Shown here: piece by piece, positions 1,911 through 14,101 of the stretch
Layout of the letters: the number at the start of each line of letters is the position of its first letter
Position numbering within the stretch: position 1 is the first letter of the stretch
Assembly (NCBI GenBank): GCA_963774665.1
Contig: CAVZGB010000015.1
Coordinates: forward strand, 68,823 to 132,822
Direction: 5' to 3'
DNA length: 64,000 nt
From: an uncultured delta proteobacterium
GTDB taxonomy: Bacteria > Desulfobacterota > Binatia > Binatales > Binataceae
Notes under the pieces: generated by a model
What the model saw: only the letters and a program-made list of their open reading frames with translations
Database searches by the model: none
What the model was told of the DNA's origin: nothing
Translations under genes and position numbers: made by a program

Positions 1911-3907
1911 GCGGGGGAGTTCGCGCTATGAATCAGCCGCAAGTTATTGAAAATCCGAAATCAAACTCGCAAGAACATGCCGACGCCGAGTCCGCGATCG
2001 TCGAAGATAGCGCCGAGAGTGCCATCAGCTGGATTGAGATTCTGCGGATCGGCCTGGTCGCACTGTGCGCGATAGCTGTGTGGTTCCGCGTCTGGGAGCC
2101 GTTCCCGCGGATTAGTCTCATCGGCTTGGCCGGCGTCATGATCGGCGGCTGGCCAATCTTCAAAGAGGCAATCGAGAACATCGCCGCGCGCCGGATGACG
2201 ATGGAACTCTCGATGTCGCTGGCGCTGCTGGCCGCCGCGGCGATTTCCGAGTTCTTCACCGCGCTCATCATCACCTTGTTCGTGCTGATCGCCGAAATAC
2301 TCGAGCACTTGACCGTTTCGCGCGGCCGTCGGGCGATTCGCGACTTGCTCGACTTTCTGCCGCGCTCCGTGACCATCCGCGGTGCCGATGGCGCCCGCGA
2401 GGTCTCAGCCGATGAATTGCGTGTGGGCGATCGCGTCCTGGTCAATCCCGGCGGCCTGGTGCCGGTCGACGGTTTCGTCATCACCGGTCACTCATTCGTC
2501 GATCAGTCGCGAATCACCGGCGAGTCGATGCCGGTCGAGAAGCTGCCGAATTCGATCGTGTTCGCGGGGACCATCAACCAGTCAGGTGCGCTGGAAATCA
2601 GAGCCGATCGAGTCGGCCGCGACTCGAGCTTCGGCAAGATAATCGAGGCGGTCGAGAGCGCCGAGCATTCGCGCGCACCGGTGCAGCGCCTCGCAGATCA
2701 AGCCGCCGGCTACCTGGTTTATTTCGCATTGTTCTCGGCGGCGATCACATTCCTTCTGACGCGCGATATCCGTTCGACGATCTCCGTCGTTATCGTCGCC
2801 GGCGCATGCGGAATCGCCGCCGGCACGCCTCTCGCGATTCTCGGTGGTATCGGTCGCGCCGCACGGCTCGGCGCAATCATCAAAGGCGGCCTGTACCTCG
2901 AGACTCTTGGACGCGTGAACACTGTAGTGCTCGACAAAACTGGCACGCTCACGTTTGGCCGCATGGAGGTGCAGTCGGTTGCTCCCGTCGCGGGGCTTCC
3001 CGAAGCAGACGTGGTTGAAGCTGCGGCGTCCGCCGAAATGCGCTCGGAACATCCGCTCGGCAAAGCGATCGTCGCCTACGCCTCGAGCAGGGGCTACTCG
3101 CTGAAAGAACCCGAGCAGTTTGACTACGCGCCCGGGAAAGGCATCACGTCAGTGATCAACGGCTCGACCGTAATCGTGGGCAATCGCGCCCTGATGGCCG
3201 ATCATCGAGTCGACGTCCCGGATAAATTCGCCACGACCGCAAACCCGTCGTCACGGCTGATGGTCGCGCGCGACGGACGATTTCTCGGCAGCGTCGCGAT
3301 CGCCGATATCGTGCGTCCCGAGGCACGCAGCGCCATCGAGTCGTTCTGCACCATGGGCATGCGCACCTTTTTACTAACCGGAGATACCGGCGAGGTCGCC
3401 AAGTCCGTCGCCGATCAACTCGGCATCAGTGACGTCGAAGCTGAACTATTGCCCGACGCGAAGTTCGACAGAGTCAAACAATTGGTCGCGAGCGGCCGGG
3501 TCGTCGCGATGGTTGGTGATGGGATCAACGACGCTCCCGCACTGGCGCAAGCAAGCGTGGGGGTCGCGATGGGCTCGGGCACCGACGTCGCGCGCGAGAC
3601 CTCCGACGTCGTGCTGCTTGGCAACGATCTGGCCAAGTTCGCGGAGACGGTGCGAATAGCGCGATGGACTCGACGGGTTATCAGGCAGAACTTCGCAGGC
3701 ACCATCGTAGTAGACCTCGTCGGCATCGCGATGGCCGCTTCCGGGCTGCTCCATCCCGCTCTGGCAGCGTTAATCCACGTCACATCCGAGATGACCTTCA
3801 TCCTTAACTCAGCTCGTCTTCTGCCACGCCGCGAACAACCGAAAAAGATACTTTCGGCTGAATCACCTATCGTCGGTGCTCGCGCCGGGACTGTTGCATC
3901 ACGTTGA
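1907..3907 (+). CDS. P-type (P1B-like) cation-translocating ATPase lacking an N-terminal HMA domain and lacking the canonical CPx membrane motif
   Basis: 666 aa with DKTGTLT, TGD and GDGINDAP motifs. The TM region carries VVIVAGACGIAAGTPLA where CPC/SPC/CPH normally sits. Its start overlaps the RcnR-like stop, suggesting translational coupling. Confidence 0.9.
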   Translation: MSGGVRAMNQPQVIENPKSNSQEHADAESAIVEDSAESAISWIEILRIGLVALCAIAVWFRVWEPFPRISLIGLAGVMIGGWPIFKEAIENIAARRMTMELSMSLALLAAAAISEFFTALIITLFVLIAEILEHLTVSRGRRAIRDLLDFLPRSVTIRGADGAREVSADELRVGDRVLVNPGGLVPVDGFVITGHSFVDQSRITGESMPVEKLPNSIVFAGTINQSGALEIRADRVGRDSSFGKIIEAVESAEHSRAPVQRLADQAAGYLVYFALFSAAITFLLTRDIRSTISVVIVAGACGIAAGTPLAILGGIGRAARLGAIIKGGLYLETLGRVNTVVLDKTGTLTFGRMEVQSVAPVAGLPEADVVEAAASAEMRSEHPLGKAIVAYASSRGYSLKEPEQFDYAPGKGITSVINGSTVIVGNRALMADHRVDVPDKFATTANPSSRLMVARDGRFLGSVAIADIVRPEARSAIESFCTMGMRTFLLTGDTGEVAKSVADQLGISDVEAELLPDAKFDRVKQLVASGRVVAMVGDGINDAPALAQASVGVAMGSGTDVARETSDVVLLGNDLAKFAETVRIARWTRRVIRQNFAGTIVVDLVGIAMAASGLLHPALAALIHVTSEMTFILNSARLLPRREQPKKILSAESPIVGARAGTVASR

Positions 3908-3928
3908 TTATTAACTATAGTTAAGTAC

Positions 3929-4693
3929 ATGACGACGACCAATCAGAGCTGGGACCCCGACGGATACGCACGCAACGCCCGCTTCGTCTCCGACCTCGGC
4001 GCGCCGGTGGTCGAGCTGCTCGCGCCGCAGGTGGGCGAGCGAATCCTCGACCTCGGATGCGGTGACGGTGCGCTGACGATCAAGCTCGCCGCCATGGGCT
4101 GCGACGTGGTCGGCGTCGACGCGAGCGCGCCCCAGATCGAAGCTGCCCGACGCCTCGGTCTCGACGCGCGTGTCGCCGAGGGCGAGCGCCTTGCCTTCGA
4201 TGCCGAGTTCGACGCCGTCTTCAGCAACGCCGCTATCCATTGGATGAAACCGCCTGACGACGTGATCGCCGGCGTATGGCGCGCGCTCCGTCCCGGCGGC
4301 CGCTTCGTCGGCGAGTTCGGCGGCCACGGATGCGTCGAAACGATCAAGCGTGCACTGATCGACGCGCTCCGGCGCCGCGGCATCGATGGTGACGCGCTCA
4401 ATCCCTGGTATTTCCCGACCGTCGAGGATTACTCTGCGCGGCTCGCGCGCCGCGGGTTCGCCATCAGGTATATCGCATTGATTCCCCGCCCGACTCCGCT
4501 GCCGACCGAAATCAACGGATGGCTCGAAACTTTCGCGCAAAGCTTCATGGCGCCGCTGGCGGACGGCGATCGGTCCGATTTTATCGACGAGGTGCGCGAA
4601 GCATTGCGGCCTAATCTCTGCGATGCCAACGGCGGCAAATGGTTCGCCGACTACGTTCGCCTGCGATTCGCCGCCGACAAGCCGCGTGACTGA
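3929..4693 (+). CDS. class I SAM-dependent methyltransferase (trans-aconitate methyltransferase-like)
   Basis: Motif I ILDLGCGDGALT plus a downstream acidic motif. 254 aa. Confidence 0.8.
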   Translation: MTTTNQSWDPDGYARNARFVSDLGAPVVELLAPQVGERILDLGCGDGALTIKLAAMGCDVVGVDASAPQIEAARRLGLDARVAEGERLAFDAEFDAVFSNAAIHWMKPPDDVIAGVWRALRPGGRFVGEFGGHGCVETIKRALIDALRRRGIDGDALNPWYFPTVEDYSARLARRGFAIRYIALIPRPTPLPTEINGWLETFAQSFMAPLADGDRSDFIDEVREALRPNLCDANGGKWFADYVRLRFAADKPRD

Positions 4694-4746
4694 CAGTTGG
4701 AGCGTTTGAGTTCCCTCGCGTCCAGCGGCAGTATTCCTCGGGCGAG

Positions 4747-5490
4747 ATGAGTATTTTTCGGGAATTAACAGAAGGACTCCCGCGACAGGCACCCGGCTCC
4801 GCCGCGGCAACGCTGCGCGCGCTCGGCCTGGTCCGCGGCCTGCCAACGAGTCCGCGAATCCTCGACGTCGGATGCGGTCCCGGCGCGCAGACTATTGAGC
4901 TCGCGCGCGCGACCGGCGGATGGATCGTCGCACTCGATATCCGCCAGCGCTTCCTCGACGAACTGACCGAACGCGCCGACGCAGCGGGAATCCTGCCACA
5001 GGTGACGACGGTCAACACCTCGATGTTCGACATGGATTTCGAAGACGGGTCATTCGATCTGATCTGGTCCGAAGGCGCCATCTATATCCAGGGATTCGCC
5101 GATGGTCTGACAGCATGGCACCGCTTCCTCAAGCCTGGAGGATGGCTAGCAGTATCCGAACTGACCTGGCTGGTGCCCAATCCGCCGCCTGAAGCCGCCG
5201 AATATTGGGCGCGGAACTATCCCGGCATGGGCTCGATCGAGCGCAACTGCCAGATCGTCGCGGAAGCCGGTTACGTGAGCATGGACGGTTTCGTGCTCCC
5301 CGAGCAGGACTGGTGGAAAAACTACTACGAGCCGGCCGAGCGCCGGGTCGAGGAGCTGCGGGAAAAGTACGCCGAGGATCGCGATGTGCTCGCAACTCTC
5401 GACGAGACGAGCCGCGAGCACGATCTCTTCCGCGCCTACCACGACTCCTACGGCTACGTCTTCTACGTAATGCGCAAACCCCTCGTGTGA
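4747..5490 (+). CDS. class I SAM-dependent methyltransferase
   Basis: ILDVGCGPGAQT glycine-rich SAM-binding motif. 247 aa. Confidence 0.8.
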   Translation: MSIFRELTEGLPRQAPGSAAATLRALGLVRGLPTSPRILDVGCGPGAQTIELARATGGWIVALDIRQRFLDELTERADAAGILPQVTTVNTSMFDMDFEDGSFDLIWSEGAIYIQGFADGLTAWHRFLKPGGWLAVSELTWLVPNPPPEAAEYWARNYPGMGSIERNCQIVAEAGYVSMDGFVLPEQDWWKNYYEPAERRVEELREKYAEDRDVLATLDETSREHDLFRAYHDSYGYVFYVMRKPLV

Positions 5491-5496
5491 AAATCC

Positions 5497-5534
5497 GGTT
5501 CCCCTTCCCTCGAGGGAAGGGGTTAGGGGTTAGG
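5497..5534. repeat. REP-like extragenic palindrome (family copy 1): ggttccccttccc-tcgag-gggaagggg-ttaggggttagg
   Basis: Perfect 9-bp stem immediately after the methyltransferase stop. It shares the tail motif t(t/c)a(g/a)ggt(t/g)agggt with copies at about 6838, 17258, 18413 and 36696. Confidence 0.6.
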
Positions 5535-5608
5535 TTCCTCGCTTTCATTTCCCCCCAATCTGGGTTACCTGTTGCCATACAAATCATTAAGACCTCGCGA
5601 GGATCGAA

Positions 5609-6799
5609 ATGGACTTTTCGCTGACCCCCAAGACCGAACAGTTGCGCAAGCGCGTCTCCGACTTCATGGACCAGTATGTCTTCCCCATCGAAAAAGATGT
5701 TCAGCGCGCGATGGGCGAGAGCGGCAATACTGAGCCGCAATCGCTGAAAGACGTCCGCAAAAAAGCCAAGGCCGAAGGCCTGTGGAACCTCTTCCTGCCC
5801 GACGAAAAATACGGCGCCGGCCTCAAGAACTACGAATACGCTCCGCTGTGCGAGCTGATGGGCCGCAGCCCGATCGGCGCGCGCGCGTTCAACTGCATGG
5901 CGCCCGACACCGGCAACATGGAAATCCTGGCCGAGTTCGGTACGCCGGATCAGAAAAAGCAGTGGCTGCAGAAATGTCTCGACGGCGAGATTCGCACCTG
6001 CTTCTCGATGACCGAGCCTGACACTCCGGGCTCCGATCCCACCCAGCTCAAGACCCGCGCGGTTCGCGACGGCGACAACTACGTGATCAACGGTCACAAG
6101 TGGTTCACCTCGAATGCGATCGGATCGGCCTTCGCGATCGCGATGGTCGTGACCGACCCCGAAGCGGAACCGCATCGCCGCGCCAGCCAGATAATCGTTC
6201 CGACCGACACCCCCGGATTCAACCTGATTCGTCCCGTGCCCGTGATGGGCCATACCGGCGGCGGCGGGCATTGCGAAATTATTTATAAAGATTGCCGCGT
6301 GCCGGTTACCAACCTGCTCGGCGAGGAAGGCGGCGGCTTCGCAATCTCGCAGGCACGCCTCGGTCCGGGACGCATCCACCATTGCATGCGCACGATCGGA
6401 ATCGCGGAACGCGCGCTCGAGCTGATGTGCAAGCGGGCGAGCACGCGCTTCACCCACGGCAGCTTTCTCGCCGACAAGTCGAACATCCAGGAATGGATCG
6501 CCAACTCGCGCATCGAGATCGATTCGTGCCGCCTGATGGTCATGCACGCGGCGTGGAAAATGGACACCGTGGGCAAGCGCGACTCGCGCAACGAGATCGC
6601 AATGATCAAAGTGATGTGCGCGAACATGGTGATGGTCGTGCTCGATCGCGCAATCCAGGTGTTCGGCGCGGCCGGCGTCAGCGACGACTTCCCGCTCGCG
6701 CGGATGTGGCGCGACAGCCGCGCACTTCGAATCGCCGACGGCCCCGACGAAGTGCATCGCATGACGATCGCGCGCCGCGAACTGCGCAAGTACAAGTGA
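5609..6799 (+). CDS. acyl-CoA dehydrogenase (ACAD10/ACAD11-type C-terminal domain family)
   Basis: 396 aa with typical ACAD blocks (FSMTEPDTPGSD, GHKWFTSNA, C-terminal QVFGAAGVSDDFPLARMWRD). An APH-like kinase gene follows it, as in the eukaryotic ACAD10/11 fusions. Confidence 0.9.
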   Translation: MDFSLTPKTEQLRKRVSDFMDQYVFPIEKDVQRAMGESGNTEPQSLKDVRKKAKAEGLWNLFLPDEKYGAGLKNYEYAPLCELMGRSPIGARAFNCMAPDTGNMEILAEFGTPDQKKQWLQKCLDGEIRTCFSMTEPDTPGSDPTQLKTRAVRDGDNYVINGHKWFTSNAIGSAFAIAMVVTDPEAEPHRRASQIIVPTDTPGFNLIRPVPVMGHTGGGGHCEIIYKDCRVPVTNLLGEEGGGFAISQARLGPGRIHHCMRTIGIAERALELMCKRASTRFTHGSFLADKSNIQEWIANSRIEIDSCRLMVMHAAWKMDTVGKRDSRNEIAMIKVMCANMVMVVLDRAIQVFGAAGVSDDFPLARMWRDSRALRIADGPDEVHRMTIARRELRKYK

Positions 6800-6837
6800 C
6801 CTTGAGGCAGACGCCGCATTGACGGTCTAATCCTGAT

Positions 6838-6872
6838 TGTTCCCTTCCCTCGCGGAAGGGATCTGGGGTTGG
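6838..6872. repeat. REP-like extragenic palindrome (family copy 2)
   Basis: cccttccc-tcgc-gggaaggg stem-loop followed by atctggggttgg. Lies between the ACAD stop and the phosphotransferase start. Confidence 0.55.
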
Positions 6873-6884
6873 CTGCATCGACGC

Positions 6885-7984
6885 ATGGCTGAACCGATAT
6901 CGATCTCGCCGTCGAATTCGGCGACGTCCGCGACGAGGAGCAACTCGACTGGAGCAAGCTCGTCGCGTATCTGCGCGAGAAACAACTGCCCGGCGCCGAC
7001 GCCCCAATGACCGTCAAGCAGTTCCGCGGCGGCTCGTCGAATCTCACCTACCTGCTGTGCTTCGGTGACCGCGAATGGGTGATGCGCCGGCCGCCGTTCG
7101 GCCCGCTGCCCGTGGGCGGTCACGACATGGGCCGCGAGTACCGCGTGCTCTCGCGCCTGTGGGAAGTCTTCAAGCCGGCGCCGCGCGGGATGCTCTACAG
7201 CGACGACGTATCGATCGTCGGCGCGCCATTCTTCGTGATGGAACGTCGCACCGGCATCGTAATCAAGAACCGCCAGCCGCTGCCGCTCGAGCTCGGCAAC
7301 GATCCTGCGATGTTCCGTGCGATGTCAGAAGGATTCATCGACACGCTCGCCGATTTGCACGGCGTCGACTACGCGTCGATCGGACTCGCGTCGCTCGGCA
7401 AGCCCGACGGATTCCTGAAGCGCCAGATAACCGGCTGGATGGGCCGATGGGAGAAAGCCAAGACGCGCGAAGTGCCGCTGATGGAAAAACTCGGCACATG
7501 GTTTCTCGACAACATGCCGGTGTCGCCGCCGCCCGTGCTCGTGCATAACGATTTCTACCTGCACAACGTCATGGTCGGTGCGGTTAATCACGGCGAGATA
7601 GTCGGCGTCTTCGACTGGGAGATGTCGACCATCGGCGATCCGTTGGTCGATCTCGGCATCGTGATGAACTACTGGCGCGACAAGAACGACCCGCCCGAGC
7701 TGCTGGGCACCTCACAGGGAGAAGCGCACACGCTGCGCCCCGGCTTCCTGACCCGCGACGAACTGCTGCATCGTTACGCGACACGCACCGGCCGCGACGT
7801 AAGCGCGATGCCGTATTACTGGGCCTGGGCGCACTGGAAAACCGCGACGGTGGTCGAGCAAATCTACGTCCGCTACGTCCGCGGCCAAACCACTGATCCG
7901 CGCTTCGCGCTGATGGGCCCAATGGCCCCAGCCCTAGCCCTCGCCGCCGCCCAAGTAGCCTCGCGACTAGGGTTCAGCGTTTAA
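6885..7984 (+). CDS. phosphotransferase-family protein (APH-like, ACAD10/11 N-terminal kinase-domain type), with an apparent 1-nt frameshift just after the start codon
   Basis: Track ORF 7007..7984 (325 aa) has APH motifs (GGSSNLTY, HNDFYLHNVM, DWEMSTIGDP). The conserved N-terminus EFGDVRDEEQLDWSKLVAYLREKQLPGADAP continues upstream in the same frame with no start codon. An ATG with MAEP lies at about 6885 in another frame, implying an indel near 6895-6905. Confidence 0.75.
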
Positions 7985-7990
7985 GCAGTA

Positions 7991-8455
7991 ATGGAACAAA
8001 TGAACCCGAACTCTGCAAATACGAAAAAAGGCCGAGATTTTCAGTTACGAGTACAGCAGGCTCTGGAGAGGATTGTCGGCGTCGAATTCGATCTAGAAGT
8101 CAAGATTCCGATTGGTGATCCACCGAAGGCTCGCCCGTTCGATTTGGCTTCCAGGAGTAGAGCGATCGTGGCCGAATGCAAGGCGTATGCGTGGACTGAG
8201 AGTGGAAATGTGCCTTCCGCAAAAATCACCACGCTCAGGGAGGCCGCCAACTATCTTCTTCAACTTCCTGCGAGCACGACCACGTTAATTGTGATGGACC
8301 GTCATTGTCATCCGAGAAGGGGAGAGGCGCTCGCTAACTACTTCGTCCGACTAAATTCGCATCTTCTTGGGCGAGTTTCGCTGCTGGAGTTGTCGAGTGA
8401 CGACACCCTCCGATTAATTCACGGCAAATTTCCCTCCTCAGGAAGTGAAACTTGA
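7991..8455 (+). CDS. small PD-(D/E)xK-like (restriction-endonuclease-fold) protein, candidate nuclease; hypothetical
   Basis: 154 aa encoded in the roughly 50% GC islet. It contains a hFD...(11 aa)...ExK pattern (RPFDLASRSRAIVAECKAY) preceded by acidic residues (EFDLEVK). No other family recognised. Confidence 0.45.
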   Translation: MEQMNPNSANTKKGRDFQLRVQQALERIVGVEFDLEVKIPIGDPPKARPFDLASRSRAIVAECKAYAWTESGNVPSAKITTLREAANYLLQLPASTTTLIVMDRHCHPRRGEALANYFVRLNSHLLGRVSLLELSSDDTLRLIHGKFPSSGSET

Positions 8456-8524
8456 CGGCTACGCTGTCACTGGAACTCGTTTCTGATTGCTTTTGCGAGG
8501 CTTAGTGAGCTCCAGCAATGAAAC

Positions 8525-9841
8525 TCATGCCTCAATCAAAAAGCTGCTGATCGCTCTTGACCAGTCTCTCTGCGAACTGAGATTTCGAGAAAGATCCGCT
8601 CGCTCAATCCAACTGGTTTTGACGTATCGATCAGGCCGTTCTCGAATTGTCTTGTTTTCGAAAGCTGCGACATTGGCCGGACCGGAGAATGACACCTGGA
8701 ATACTACGCCAACATGGCGAGCCGCCCGTTTATCTTCCGAGCTATGGACAATCCCAATTGGATGTAGATGGGGCAAATCTTCCAACGAGAGTTCTTCATG
8801 TAGTTCTCTTCGGAGACCTGTCAGGACGCTCTCCCACTTCGACTTGGCTTGATCCCTATCTTGCTTTCTTACGTGTCCCCCGGCCCAATTTCCGAAGGCT
8901 TCGTGAAGCGACTCGCCTGGTTCGAACCGAACGTTCGTCAGAAAGCGATTGCCATTTCGAATGATACAGACGGGGACGACCTGCAGGAGATCGTCCGAAG
9001 TCTCCGCAATCGATCTGGCCACGTACGTGCCTTTGCTATTTACCAGCTTTGAGAGCGTTTTCCACTTCGGCGTAATCATCTTCTTATCAGAAAGCTTGAT
9101 CTGTCCTTCGAGAGATTTACGCGGAATACAGAGAACCTCCTCGTCTGCGAATTTGCCAAAGCACCTCAGAAGGGTCTTTGCGATATCTGTGATCGTTTTC
9201 ATTTCCGGACCTCGACTGTTCTCGATAACTGTAATCGATTTGAAATCTGCTTTATATCTACGGGCCGCCTCCAAGTAGTGCCGGCGCAACTGGGTTAAAG
9301 TACCAATGTTCATTATGGCTCCATGGCGGAGCGTGATTTGCCTAGCGTACTCTCTGTCGATGGAGGTTTTTGCGTCGCAATGCATGACGAAAACCATATC
9401 GATCAGCCCGCGCCACCGTGGCGTCAATACAAAGCTGCGAAACCCTTCCGCTTCAGCTTTGGATACTCGGTGCGTTTTTTCCTGCCAGTCGATCCAAACT
9501 AGCCCGTCGAAAAGCCCTCTATCCAAGATAAGAACATCGAGTTTTTCGTCTTCGAGAGCTTCAATTATTCCGTTGAGCGTAGCGCATGTCACCCACGTGT
9601 TGAAGAAAGCGGTGCCCTTGTCCAATAACGGAGCAACCGAAGCGCGCTCCTGGAAAGTGCGGACCATAACGCCATTCCTTTTGAAGAACTGGTGTATTGC
9701 ACCAATCGTGGTCGTCTTTCCAGACTTCGGAGTGCCAGCAAACTCGATAATAAAAGGTCGGCGCTTGTCGGACAATCTTGGACGAATTAGGGAGATCTGT
9801 TTTTCGAGACGCGCGCGAACCTGCTGCATCGATCCATCCAT
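8525..9841 (-). CDS. fusion protein: N-terminal P-loop nucleotide/nucleoside-kinase-like domain (Walker A AGTPKSGKTT; hhhhDRG Walker B/DRx) plus C-terminal Nudix-like hydrolase domain (divergent Nudix box ...GGHV...E-x7-RELHEELSL)
   Basis: The track ORF is 8525..10150, but its first 103 codons are antisense to the high-GC HigA-like gene. Met104/Met108 (MDGSMQQ) at 9841 is preceded by ggggATGG and marks the drop to about 50% GC, so it is the more likely start. The DRG motif after a hydrophobic strand resembles dNK/TMPK-type kinases. The REUxEE core of the Nudix box is present, with a long insertion between GG and the Glu. Confidence 0.6.
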   Translation of the reverse strand: MDGSMQQVRARLEKQISLIRPRLSDKRRPFIIEFAGTPKSGKTTTIGAIHQFFKRNGVMVRTFQERASVAPLLDKGTAFFNTWVTCATLNGIIEALEDEKLDVLILDRGLFDGLVWIDWQEKTHRVSKAEAEGFRSFVLTPRWRGLIDMVFVMHCDAKTSIDREYARQITLRHGAIMNIGTLTQLRRHYLEAARRYKADFKSITVIENSRGPEMKTITDIAKTLLRCFGKFADEEVLCIPRKSLEGQIKLSDKKMITPKWKTLSKLVNSKGTYVARSIAETSDDLLQVVPVCIIRNGNRFLTNVRFEPGESLHEAFGNWAGGHVRKQDRDQAKSKWESVLTGLRRELHEELSLEDLPHLHPIGIVHSSEDKRAARHVGVVFQVSFSGPANVAAFENKTIRERPDRYVKTSWIERADLSRNLSSQRDWSRAISSFLIEA

Positions 9842-9963
9842 CCCCAATACCCCTATGTTTGCCGCCCTGTGGCGGCGCGACACCGGCGCATCAGGAAGCG
9901 GTCCGTTCCAATCTTCGACAAACGATAAGCGGCATAATAGTTTGGAAGAAGAGGCAAGCAAAG

Positions 9964-10327
9964 ATGGTTCGCTGAAACAAAATACCGCCTGCTTCACCCC
10001 GGGGTGGTCCTCTACGAGGACTTCATCGTGCCGACCGGCATCAGCATCCACCGACTTGCGATGGATCTGCGTGTGCCGGCCAATCGCATCGCGGAAATCG
10101 TGAAGGGCGAGCGCGCCATCTCGGCTGACACCGCACTTCGCCTCGCTCATTATCTCGGTACGTCTGCGGAATTCTGGCTTGGCTTGCAGAGCGATTGCGA
10201 TCTCGAAAAAGCCAGGGACGAGCTGGCGCCAAAAATTGAGTGCGAGGTTCAGCCACCAAACGTGCGGCGTAGTTCGCGTTCATCCGGCTCTTTTCAGCGA
10301 GCGGCAAGTACGCTATCCAAGGTATAA
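9964..10327 (+). CDS. higA: HigA-family (VapI-type) XRE antitoxin-like HTH protein, orphan, with an apparent frameshift right after the ATG
   Basis: The LLHPGVVLYEDF...GERAISADTALRLAHYLGTSAEFWLGLQSDCDL region matches the HigA antitoxin family (HPGEIL, HTH, FWLNLQ). The in-frame region upstream has no ATG. An SD (gaagagg) plus ATG at 9964 is in the -1 frame, and one extra G after the ATG would give MFAETKYRLLHPG. The track ORF starts at a GTG at 10004. Confidence 0.7.
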
Positions 10328-11811: not shown

Positions 11812-14101
11812 ATGGCGGCATCAACCACGACAGACAATTTCAAAGTTATCGGCACGCGTCCGATTCGGCACGACGGCGTTGATAAGGTCACCGGCCGCGC
11901 CAAGTACGGCGCTGACTACGCGTTCCCCGGAATGTTGCACGGCAAAGTGCTGCGCAGCCCGCACGCTCACGCGAATATCAAATCGATCAATATCGACAAG
12001 GCGCTTAAGCTCCCCGGCGTCAAGGCTATCGTCACCGGAAAGGATCTGCCGAAGGCCGAGAACAAGCTCGAGCAGGCCGGCGAAATGGTCATCAATCCGA
12101 TGTACCTGTCGATGAACATCCTCGCGCACGACAAGGTCCTGTATGACGGCCATGCGATCGCCGCCGTCGCCGCGACCAGCCCGCATATCGCCGAGGAAGC
12201 TTTGCGGCTGATCGAAGTCGAATACGAAGTGTTGCCGCCTGTCATGACTGTCGATGTCGCGACCAAGCCTGGCGCGCCGATTCTGCTGAAGGACCTGCGC
12301 AACAAGGAAGAGGGCGACAAGCCGACCAACGTCGCGCAGCACTACCAGTTCAAACGCGGCGACGTCGAAGCAGGATTCAAGGGCGCCGACTACGTGATCG
12401 AGCGCGAGTTCAATACCGCGATGGTCCACCAGGGATACATCGAGCCGCACAATGCCGTCGGCATCTACAACTCCGATGGACAGGCGACGATTTACTGCTC
12501 GACGCAGGGCGCCTTCGACGTGCGCTCGCTGAGCGCGCAGGTACTCGGGATGCCGGTCGGCCATATCAAAGTCGTGCCGGCTGAGATCGGCGGCGGCTTC
12601 GGCGGCAAGACTACCATCTATCTCGAGCCGCTCTCCGTCCTGCTGTCGAAGAAGACCGGCGCCCCGGTCAAGCTGGTGATGTCGCGCTCGGAAGTTCTCC
12701 GTGCGAGCGGCCCGACCTCGGGCTCCAAGATCAAAGTGAAGATGGGCGCGAGCAAGGACGGCAAACTCGTCGCCGCCGAAATCTGGATGGCCTACGAGGC
12801 TGGCGCGTTCCCCGGATCGCCGGTAGGCGCGGGCGCGATGTGCATCATCGCTCCTTACACCATCGAGAATTTCGTAATCGACGCGTACGACGTTGTCGTC
12901 AATCGCCCCAAGACCGCGGCCTATCGCGCGCCGGGCGCAACCAACGCCGCGTTCGCCTCCGAGACGATCATCGACGAGCTCGCCGAAAAGTGCGGAATCG
13001 ATCCGATCGATTTCCGCCTCAAGAACGCGGTCAAAGAGGGCGATGCGCAGGTTGTCGGTCCTCCGTTCAAGCGCATCGGATTGATCCAGACGCTCGAAGG
13101 GAATCAAGAACAGCCCGCACTACAAGTCCAAAGTGACCGGCAAGTTCCGTGGACGCGGCGTCGCATCGGGCTTCTGGTTCAACGCCGGGATGCAATCGTC
13201 GGCCACGGTGAATATCCATGCCGACGGAACCGCCAGCGTCGTGACCGGCTCGCCGGATATCGGCGGCTCGCGCGCTTCGATGGCGATGATCACCGCCGAA
13301 GTTCTCGGACTTCCGGTGACGGACGTCCGCCCGATCACCGCCGACACCGATTCGATCGGGCATACCGACGTCACTGGCGGCAGCCGCGTGACCTTCGCAA
13401 CCGGCATGGCGGTGTACGAGGCAGCCAAGGACGCCGAGCGCCAGCTGATCGAGCGCGCCGCCAAGGTCTGGGAGAAAAAGCCCGACGAGGTGGAATTCCG
13501 CGACGGCATGCTTCACGCGAAAGGCAACGGCGTGCCGCCGATGTCGCTCAAGCAGCTCGCGCCCCGCTTTGCGCGCACGGGCGGTCCGATCACCGGTCGT
13601 GCGAGCGTGAACGCCCGCGGCGTAGGTCCCGGGTTCGCGACGACGCTCGTCGACGTCGAGGTCGATCCCGATACCGGCAAAGTACAAATCCTGCGATGCA
13701 CCGTCGCGCAAGATGCGGGCAAGGCGATTCATCCGAGCTACGTCGAAGGACAGATGCAGGGCGGCACCGCGCAGGGACTCGGATGGGCGCTCAACGAGGA
13801 ATACTTTTACGACGACAAGGGCACGCTGCGTAACTCCGGATTTCTCGACTACCGTATGCCCACCTGCCTCGACCTGCCGATGATCGAAACCGTCGTGGTC
13901 GAGGAAGCAAACCCCGGTCATCCGCTGGGCGTGCGCGGCGTCGGCGAGGTATCGATCGTGCCGCCGGTCGCAGCGGTAGCCAACGCTATCTATCGTGCGG
14001 TCGGCGTCAGGATGACGGAGACCCCGATGTCGCCGCCGAAGCTGCTGAAAGCGATGCTGAAGCATCGTGACTCGACAAAACATTCCGCTGCGGCGGATTG
14101 A
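11812..14101 (+). CDS. molybdopterin-binding large subunit of a xanthine dehydrogenase/CO-dehydrogenase-family enzyme (form II-like AYRAPG motif, not bona fide CO dehydrogenase), with an apparent frameshift near 13095-13110
   Basis: N-terminal 430 aa in frame 1 (track ORF 11812..) and C-terminal 322 aa in frame 2 (13133..14101). Both are CoxL/XdhA-like. Frame 2 already reads ...NSPHYKSKVTGKFRGRGVASGFWFN upstream of 13133, so one indel near gaagggaatcaag explains the split. Confidence 0.8.

Follow-up and report, generated by a model that had tools for sequence, protein, structure and literature searches.

A minimal PD-(D/E)xK-fold protein on a single-gene cassette in a Binataceae contig: member of an unnamed family and candidate stand-alone nuclease

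The window analyzed in this study is a 64,000-nucleotide stretch of an uncultured delta proteobacterium of the Binataceae (assembly GCA_963774665.1, contig CAVZGB010000015.1, positions 68,823 to 132,822 of the forward strand). It carries a small gene between aph, which encodes an APH-family phosphotransferase, and a gene for a fusion of a P-loop kinase with a Nudix domain (kinase-Nudix). Judged from sequence comparison and structure prediction, the small gene belongs to a new and unnamed family of minimal (~150 residues) proteins inside the PD-(D/E)xK superfamily, and it arrived as a one-gene cassette between these two neighbors. Its product would be a stand-alone, horizontally exchanged defense-type DNA endonuclease that works independently of aph and the kinase-Nudix gene, a reading given a probability of roughly 0.55-0.6. 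While the superfamily is already very well known, the family is new. It is sizeable, with hundreds of clusters in bacteria and archaea and a clear signature, behaves as a portable single-gene cassette, and is tied by its domain architectures to modification-sensing END nucleases and to HEPN and TIR defense contexts. If active, the stand-alone form would rank with the smallest restriction-type enzymes that act autonomously, and it would offer a simple case in which to study how a nuclease without a sensor avoids damage to self DNA.

Predicted fold and putative active site

The open reading frame (ORF) begins with an ATG, and a second in-frame ATG (Table 1) would give a protein of the size of the closest homologues. 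The source names of these homologues, Candidatus Binataceae and "uncultured delta proteobacterium" (metagenome-assembled genomes), suggest a Binatia-like soil bacterium as the origin of the window. Both the ORF and the motif quoted in the initial annotation of this DNA were recovered, the latter as RPFDLASRSRAIVAECKAY at residues 48-66, and the acidic stretch EFDLEVK occupies residues 32-38.

An AlphaFold2 model built on an alignment of 82 close homologues reached a mean predicted local distance difference test score (pLDDT) of 92.7 and a predicted template modeling score (pTM) of 0.86. Helices were predicted at residues 6-29, 76-90, and 114-125, and strands at residues 33-41, 46-54, 59-64, 97-103, 130-134, and 140-144. 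The elements from helix 6-29 through strand 97-103 form an alpha-beta-beta-beta-alpha-beta core, which is followed by a small alpha-beta-beta unit. The initial annotation had proposed a restriction-endonuclease fold and had named structure prediction as deciding; the predicted core, the Foldseek matches, and the conserved D, E, and K residues all support that fold.

The Foldseek comparison suggested along with that proposal returned named matches that were predominantly PD-(D/E)xK nucleases. Among the top matches in the PDB were VC1899, McrC, Cdn1, the R2 retrotransposon endonuclease, and AF1548, as well as Can2, AF2093, OkrAI, BbvCI, and NucC, with probabilities of up to 0.99. Among the viral predicted structures of BFVD, six named matches were obtained at E <= 1e-3. 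The best named one was a cyanophage restriction endonuclease (6e-5), and other named matches were MmcB-like, DUF559, and PD-(D/E)XK domain proteins.

Conservation was assessed in the 82 close homologues and in a divergent set of 65 sequences with 29-75% identity to the window protein and a mean column identity of 25%. F50, E62, K64, and P75-S76-A77-K78-I79 were invariant in the close family, and E36 and D51 were conserved in at least 90% of its members. The divergent set keeps G14, F17, F50, D51, E62, K64, P75, S76, A77, L114, and E133, with D51, E62, and K64 each conserved in at least 90% of the 65 members and K78 as the sole fully invariant residue. In the model, D51 lies on strand beta2 and E62-x-K64 on strand beta3, as the PD-(D/E)xK motif requires. 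A D-x10-E-x-K string could by itself arise by chance, but it stands above chance because it is conserved across the family. Model and alignments thus support a predicted PD-(D/E)xK fold with an intact catalytic motif.

The strand limits imply a hairpin registry in which E36 would lie opposite D51 in the beta1-beta2 hairpin, and in which E36, D51, and E62 would share one face of the sheet. EFDLEVK had been suggested to supply the third carboxylate. This agrees with the close subfamily, where E36 is conserved, but not with the broad set of 65, in which the position is variable.

An unnamed family within the superfamily

In a collection of 5.8 billion proteins, 91 homologues were found at E <= 1e-3, every one of them unnamed. 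Among 1.84 billion cluster representatives, a search with the family profile returned 752 clusters (50% identity), 487 of them at E <= 1e-10. Members are distributed over many bacterial phyla and include one on a haloarchaeal plasmid, and they share the signature G-x2-F-(Q/E) ... FD ... ExK ... GNxPSAK ... E.

The window protein matched no model in Pfam, NCBIfam, PADLOC, or PHROGs, with nothing in the Pfam scan at E <= 1. Searches of PDB sequences, whether started from the protein or from the family profile, brought up only a spurious match to L30e (E 0.48). When the 65 divergent members were compared with Pfam, the weak matches of nuclease type (PDDEXK_15, Mrr_cat, NERD, HSDR_N_2, and Mrr_cat_2) all belonged to the PD-(D/E)xK clan and all remained sub-threshold. 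Mrr_cat (PF04471) and PDDEXK_15 (PF24608) were matched by 5 of the 65 members each, with best E-values of 6.6e-4 and 1.6e-3, respectively, and in the gathering-threshold test for these two models P0224 reached 16.3 bits, below the cut-off of 21. Overall, the closest known group is Mrr/PDDEXK_15. When the family profile was aligned by hhalign with E. coli Mrr and with E. coli McrC, each as a single sequence, neither comparison reached significance (Prob 0.07); a loose superposition of McrC on the D...DxK region carries no evidential weight.

The family thus shares with the superfamily (Pfam clan CL0236) the core fold, a D on beta2, an ExK on beta3, and G-x-x-F-(Q/E) in the N-terminal helix, together with fold matches to McrC, Can2/VC1899, AF1548, and Type II restriction endonucleases. 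Some members also show an Mrr-like layout of an N-terminal winged helix-turn-helix (wHTH)-like domain and a C-terminal nuclease. In contrast to the PD-(D/E)xK families of Pfam, none of whose gathering thresholds is reached by any member, the family is marked by a motif of its own, GNxPSAK, which is invariant, and by a C-terminal alpha-beta-beta unit that is conserved and contains E133. The window protein itself is without a DNA-recognition domain.

A single-gene cassette with empty sites in relatives

Three contigs (L032, L034, and L035) share the gene order of the window, with a CO-dehydrogenase flavoprotein gene, the kinase-Nudix gene, and aph, but contain no small gene. In L034, the synteny runs on via acyl-CoA dehydrogenase to a methyltransferase. 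The kinase-Nudix proteins of these contigs were 78-80% identical to that of the window, and the products of the flanking genes 84-98%. The stop codons of aph and kinase-Nudix are about 16-25 bp apart in these contigs, and the kinase-Nudix reading frame is intact in L032. Because the empty-site relatives keep the two genes nearly abutting, the small gene represents an insertion of ~535 bp, which arrived as one gene. On the left, the insert joins aph within its last two codons; on the right, it ends a few bases short of the stop codon of kinase-Nudix. A search for terminal repeats and target-site duplications around the cassette gave only short, chance-level repeats.

The cassette is also present in the syntenic contig L001, where its history differs from that of its surroundings. 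DNA identity between the window and L001 was 90-96% in the flanks and 57-81% in the small gene, with the minimum at its 5' end. The small gene had a synonymous divergence (dS) of 1.60, compared with 0.26 in kinase-Nudix and 0.28-0.72 in the remaining neighbors. A dS of this size next to low-dS flanks points to a replaced allele or a much older coalescence and to the absence of co-evolution with the neighbor. The ratio of nonsynonymous to synonymous divergence (dN/dS) of the small gene was 0.09, which argues for strong purifying selection and a functional gene. The small size, the missing partner, and the lack of a known function would fit a decaying or non-catalytic remnant, either a DNA-binding protein without nuclease activity or a pseudogene-like passenger. 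Such a remnant is hardly credible, given that all motif residues are intact, that the model is compact and of high confidence, and that dN/dS is low despite saturated synonymous divergence.

A precise presence/absence polymorphism between conserved genes, as in the ~535-bp insert and the ~16-bp spacer found here, is a criterion for homing endonucleases. A selfish, free-standing homing-type enzyme would cut the empty aph/kinase-Nudix or similar sites and spread by recombinational repair without benefit to the host. This would also fit the history discordant with the flanks, the most divergent 5' end, the lack of a partner gene, the tight abutment or overlap with adjoining ORFs in several loci, and the homing endonuclease annotation of some BFVD fold matches. 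Several findings make this explanation improbable nevertheless. No copy was found in 50,697 phage records, and the family was not found in introns or inteins. The insertion contexts all differ, with no common target evident and no terminal repeats. The region following the ExK motif, which includes the presumably DNA-facing PSAK segment, is very highly conserved, which argues for a constant substrate feature (a structure, lesion, or modification) and against diversified sequence recognition. Fusions to sensor and HEPN domains, described below, are typical of defense proteins and not of homing enzymes.

Rejected partnership with the kinase-Nudix gene

The initial annotation had regarded the small protein as a candidate nuclease partner of the kinase-Nudix protein, in what would be a two-gene system within one low-GC islet. 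The arrangement on which this was based was confirmed. The two genes are convergent, with the kinase-Nudix ORF at 8525-10150 on the reverse strand and 69 nt between the stop codons. The small gene has a GC content of 51.2% (52.9% at third codon positions, GC3) and the kinase-Nudix gene one of 50.3% (GC3 55.1%), compared with 62-65% (GC3 78-82%) in the flanking genes for acyl-CoA dehydrogenase, the APH-family phosphotransferase, and the CO-dehydrogenase flavoprotein. Adjacency, convergence, and shared composition speak for an effector partner, as does the retention of the pair in the syntenic L001/L002.

The partnership itself was not borne out. For the co-occurrence check that the initial annotation had called for, six-frame translations of 80 metagenomic kinase-Nudix loci (L030-L109) were searched with a hidden Markov model of the small family. 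At least 600 bp of flank was available downstream in 59 and upstream in 61 of these loci. None of the 80 loci gave a match, and all positive-control loci were recovered at E 1e-31 or better. Conversely, about 25 small-gene loci are without kinase-Nudix, which was found in 1 of the ~25 small-gene contexts; it adjoins small-gene relatives only in L001/L002, which correspond to the window's own part of the chromosome in a related organism. An intact kinase-Nudix gene occupies the same locus without the small gene in L032, and L034 and L035 likewise lack the small gene. The dS values of 1.60 and 0.26 come from the same genome pair, and in the unrelated context of L031 the kinase-Nudix gene adjoins a transposase of the insertion sequence (IS) type. 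Based on the 0 of 80 loci, the single context, and the empty-site alleles, the two-gene system was rejected as extremely improbable. With this link removed, the kinase-Nudix gene is to be interpreted by itself.

Neighborhoods of relatives

No conserved neighbor detectable by sequence was found across ~21-25 independent small-gene loci. Several contexts contain genes related to conflict. In L018 (Erythrobacter sp. HA6-11 chromosome, 3791-8435), a family member stands at the 3' end of a Type I restriction-modification (R-M) operon with EcoEI-type hsdR and hsdS, and the overlap of its start codon with the hsdS stop suggests co-translation. TIR-domain proteins were found near members in L013, L018, L027, and L117, the TIR-like gene of L018 being located ~2 kb downstream of the family member. 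A DNA methylase and a GHKL ATPase occur in L025, Hen1-Pnkp, PIN, and AAA_16 in L010, a UvrD-type (AAA_30) helicase in L009, and BrxC/PglY (a faint Pfam match) with DUF4007 in L029. Mobility genes near relatives include integrases, IS256 and ISL3 transposases, and a TrwC relaxase.

In L003-L006, a PLD-like gene and a REase-ARP/PDDEXK_13 gene are found beside DUF3800 and Mom. In L003, the small gene overlaps the downstream PLD-like gene, which is followed by the REase-ARP/PDDEXK_13 gene; the genes that overlap downstream in L003 and L116 are unrelated to each other. L003-L006 (5219-8314) and L027 (3897-5136) are two partly syntenic loci of Acidobacteriota type, both with a DUF429 (RNase-H-like) gene divergent upstream of the small gene.

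A Type II R-M reading was rejected, since no adjacent cognate methyltransferase was found and no methyltransferase is conserved across loci. In the window, the two upstream methyltransferases matched only generic S-adenosylmethionine-dependent methyltransferase families of Pfam, and at least one of them is also present in an empty-site relative.

Domain fusions and glycosylase-fold extensions

Fused forms accounted for 44 of 235 members (~19%), with 22 N-terminal and 22 C-terminal extensions. The N-terminal extensions include the wHTH-like DUF7669 and DUF7662, a GntR/MarR-like wHTH domain at a sub-threshold score, an HNH-like segment identified by eye, and a Swt1-type HEPN domain (HEPN_Swt1) in P0157. 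The largest C-terminal cluster (n=7) is DUF4145-like according to a sub-threshold Pfam match in P0140, and one member carries the PADLOC candidate-defense domain PDC-S31/DUF2971. NCBIfam returned nothing useful for ten fusion proteins. PDB sequence searches with two C-terminal extensions gave no match, and it took structure prediction and Foldseek to resolve the first one.

Glycosylase folds were recognized in two kinds of C-terminal extension. The C-terminus of P0131 matched the PADLOC OGG model at 2.4e-5 and structures of Ogg and apurinic/apyrimidinic (AP) lyases at E 0.006, and it aligns with E. coli endonuclease III via the catalytic DTH aspartate and four Fe-S cysteines. The extension of P0117, P0125, and P0356 constitutes a separate family with 734 matches. 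Its AlphaFold2 model (pLDDT 89) retrieved mainly HhH-GPD glycosylases, namely MjOgg, OGG1, Mig, EndoIII, and MutY.

This separate family of 734 matches (P0357-P0474, including P0365) is unannotated and all-helical, with ~210-245 residues, a predicted HhH-GPD/Ogg-like fold, and an invariant GLGxAGASGLL...D. Its members are mostly stand-alone but also occur fused to TIR_2, Cupin_2, DUF1653, an acetyltransferase, and the small nuclease. Such a pattern would fit a sensor of modified bases to which different effectors can be attached.

Genes of the uracil-DNA glycosylase (UDG) superfamily were found directly downstream of family members in two unrelated loci, L029 (5482-5928) and L111 (6497-7114). 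In one of the two, located on a Methylobacter plasmid, IS256 copies stand on both sides of the pair. No homology between the UDGs was detectable; their recurrence is therefore at superfamily level, in 2 of ~25 loci, and does not amount to a conserved partner.

These genes, the fusions to two different HhH-GPD glycosylase-fold domains, and the MmcB-like repair protein among the BFVD matches would suit a DNA-repair nuclease that acts on base-excision intermediates downstream of glycosylases, nicking abasic sites or mismatches in a manner similar to Vsr or AP endonucleases, in host genome maintenance. Such a role is unlikely. Unlike core repair genes, the family is patchily distributed, varies between strains, and has a foreign composition, and most members are without a nearby glycosylase. 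Moreover, the combination of a glycosylase fold with a nuclease has an experimentally supported defense role (PMC12191111), and other fusions of defense type exist (HEPN and PDC-S31).

The same observations allow for a split, glycosylase-coupled restriction system with the stand-alone nuclease as its trans-acting cleavage module. A separate protein of HhH-GPD or UDG fold would recognize or excise modified bases in invading DNA, and the nuclease would cut the flagged or abasic site via its invariant PSAK/K78 surface, serving as a portable "executioner" common to sensors linked to glycosylase folds, wHTH, and HEPN. The basis is circumstantial, consisting of the fusions in some relatives and the adjacency in L029 and L111, and this version is considered rather improbable.

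Comparison with known systems

In END nucleases, a PLD or "NucS-like PD-DExK" nuclease is joined to an EndoIII/Ogg domain that is inactive and senses hypermodified phage DNA (Yee et al. 2025, bioRxiv 10.1101/2025.03.31.646159; PMC12191111), and END-Mag (MDV2503288.1), the PD-DExK-iEndoIII version, restricts phages with modified G (PMC12191111). P0131 and P0117/P0125/P0356 resemble them in domain architecture, with an N-terminal PD-(D/E)xK domain and a C-terminal domain of EndoIII/Ogg fold (HhH-GPD). As in END-PaCF1, a methyltransferase and a conserved neighbor are missing and the genes lie in variable islands. In contrast to END nucleases, the window protein consists of the 154-residue nuclease module only and lacks the sensor domain, and the glycosylase-fold domains fused to the family keep the conserved Asp and so may or may not be inactive like the END sensor.

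DUF4145 is a HEPN family that is fused with restriction endonuclease (REase) domains and located in R-M operons (Anantharaman et al. 2013, PMC3710099). The family resembles these REase-HEPN fusions by its members with Swt1-like and DUF4145-like HEPN domains and by its R-M neighbors, but the published fusions use other REase families and the window protein is unfused. With solitary Type IV enzymes such as E. coli Mrr it has in common the single gene, the lack of a cognate methylase, the PD-(D/E)xK domain, and the location in islands. Mrr differs by its N-terminal DNA-binding domain and, as given above, did not align significantly.

Proposed activity

As a stand-alone defense-type endonuclease, the protein would bind Mg2+ through D51 and E62, with E36 contributing in the close subfamily, and K64 would activate or position the attacking water. 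At the start of helix alpha2, K78 may contact a phosphate of the DNA backbone, and a homodimer would probably act on double-stranded DNA. In relatives, the same module may serve as the interchangeable cleavage domain of multi-domain conflict proteins, in which it is joined to domains predicted to bind DNA or sense modified bases (wHTH-like DUF7669/DUF7662 and HhH-GPD) or to HEPN.

A number of points weigh against this reading. The Foldseek E-values were modest, with best values of 5.5e-3 in the PDB and 6e-5 in BFVD and TM-scores of 0.45-0.55. The window protein is not extended by a sensor or DNA-binding domain, and with neither a methyltransferase partner nor an evident immunity factor it has no apparent means of sparing self DNA; its substrate could be RNA or damaged DNA instead of foreign DNA. 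Besides being absent from the phage records, the family was found on only three plasmids, one of them the haloarchaeal one, and PADLOC has no model that fits the stand-alone form. The recurrence of conflict and mobility genes around relatives was judged qualitatively, with no background control, and several loci (L115, L028, and the window itself) are largely housekeeping.

Features of the cassette and the surrounding locus

The features of the small gene are given in Table 1. A canonical terminator was looked for in the 3' tail and none was seen; the tail folds mildly better than shuffled sequences (z = -2.06).

Table 1. Coordinates of the small gene, its predicted functional codons, and the cassette within the window
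Feature	Position	Strand	Remarks
Single-gene cassette, ~535 bp, low GC	7985..8520		Present in the window and L001; ~16-bp spacer in syntenic L032, L034, L035; limits +/- few bases
ORF of the small protein with predicted PD-(D/E)xK nuclease fold	7991..8455	+	154 aa; start at ATG 8000 gives 151 aa
Codon of E36 (strand beta1), possible extra carboxylate	8096..8098	+	Close-subfamily feature
Codon of D51, predicted metal-binding Asp, strand beta2 (FD motif)	8141..8143	+	Conservation >=90%; strand 46-54
Codons of E62-C63-K64, putative (D/E)xK motif, strand beta3	8174..8182	+	Conservation; strand 59-64
Codons of P75-S76-A77-K78, family signature, predicted N-terminus of helix alpha2	8213..8224	+	Conservation and model
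Codon of E133, near-invariant acidic residue, predicted C-terminal beta-hairpin	8387..8389	+	Conservation and model
Cassette 3' tail between the convergent stop codons	8456..8524	+	Moderately structured, without canonical terminator

The kinase-Nudix ORF of 541 residues is probably over-extended, and the likely gene spans 8525-9841 (438 residues). Its homologues have ~438-450 residues, the 97% identity to L001 begins only at residue ~100, and the additional ~103 N-terminal codons overlap a higA-like gene on the opposite strand. The fusion of a P-loop kinase (similar to deoxynucleoside monophosphate kinases and AAA_28) with Nudix is a widespread family of its own in varied contexts, with 310+ protein matches, 372 metagenome stretches, and a match to phrog_8902. 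Homologues matching in two frames were found in L034 (~4491-4497), L035 (~979-985), and L038/L039 (near codon 189), which suggests frameshifts due to pseudogenes or sequencing errors; L030, L031, and L032 are intact.

The higA-like gene (10004-10327, +) encodes a helix-turn-helix protein similar to HigA-family antitoxins (TIGR02607, 1e-24). It is divergent from kinase-Nudix and has no adjacent HigB toxin gene. The window, L001, and L030 have this gene, whereas the otherwise syntenic L032, L034, and L035 do not, which makes it a second presence/absence polymorphism at the locus. Farther downstream, a frameshift at ~13097-13116 (within 11812-14101, +) splits a gene for a molybdopterin subunit of the CoxL/xanthine-dehydrogenase family. 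The L001 orthologue is intact (762 residues); frame 1 of the window corresponds to its residues 1-435 and frame 2 to its residues 429-762, so that the split gene is either a pseudogene or an assembly error.

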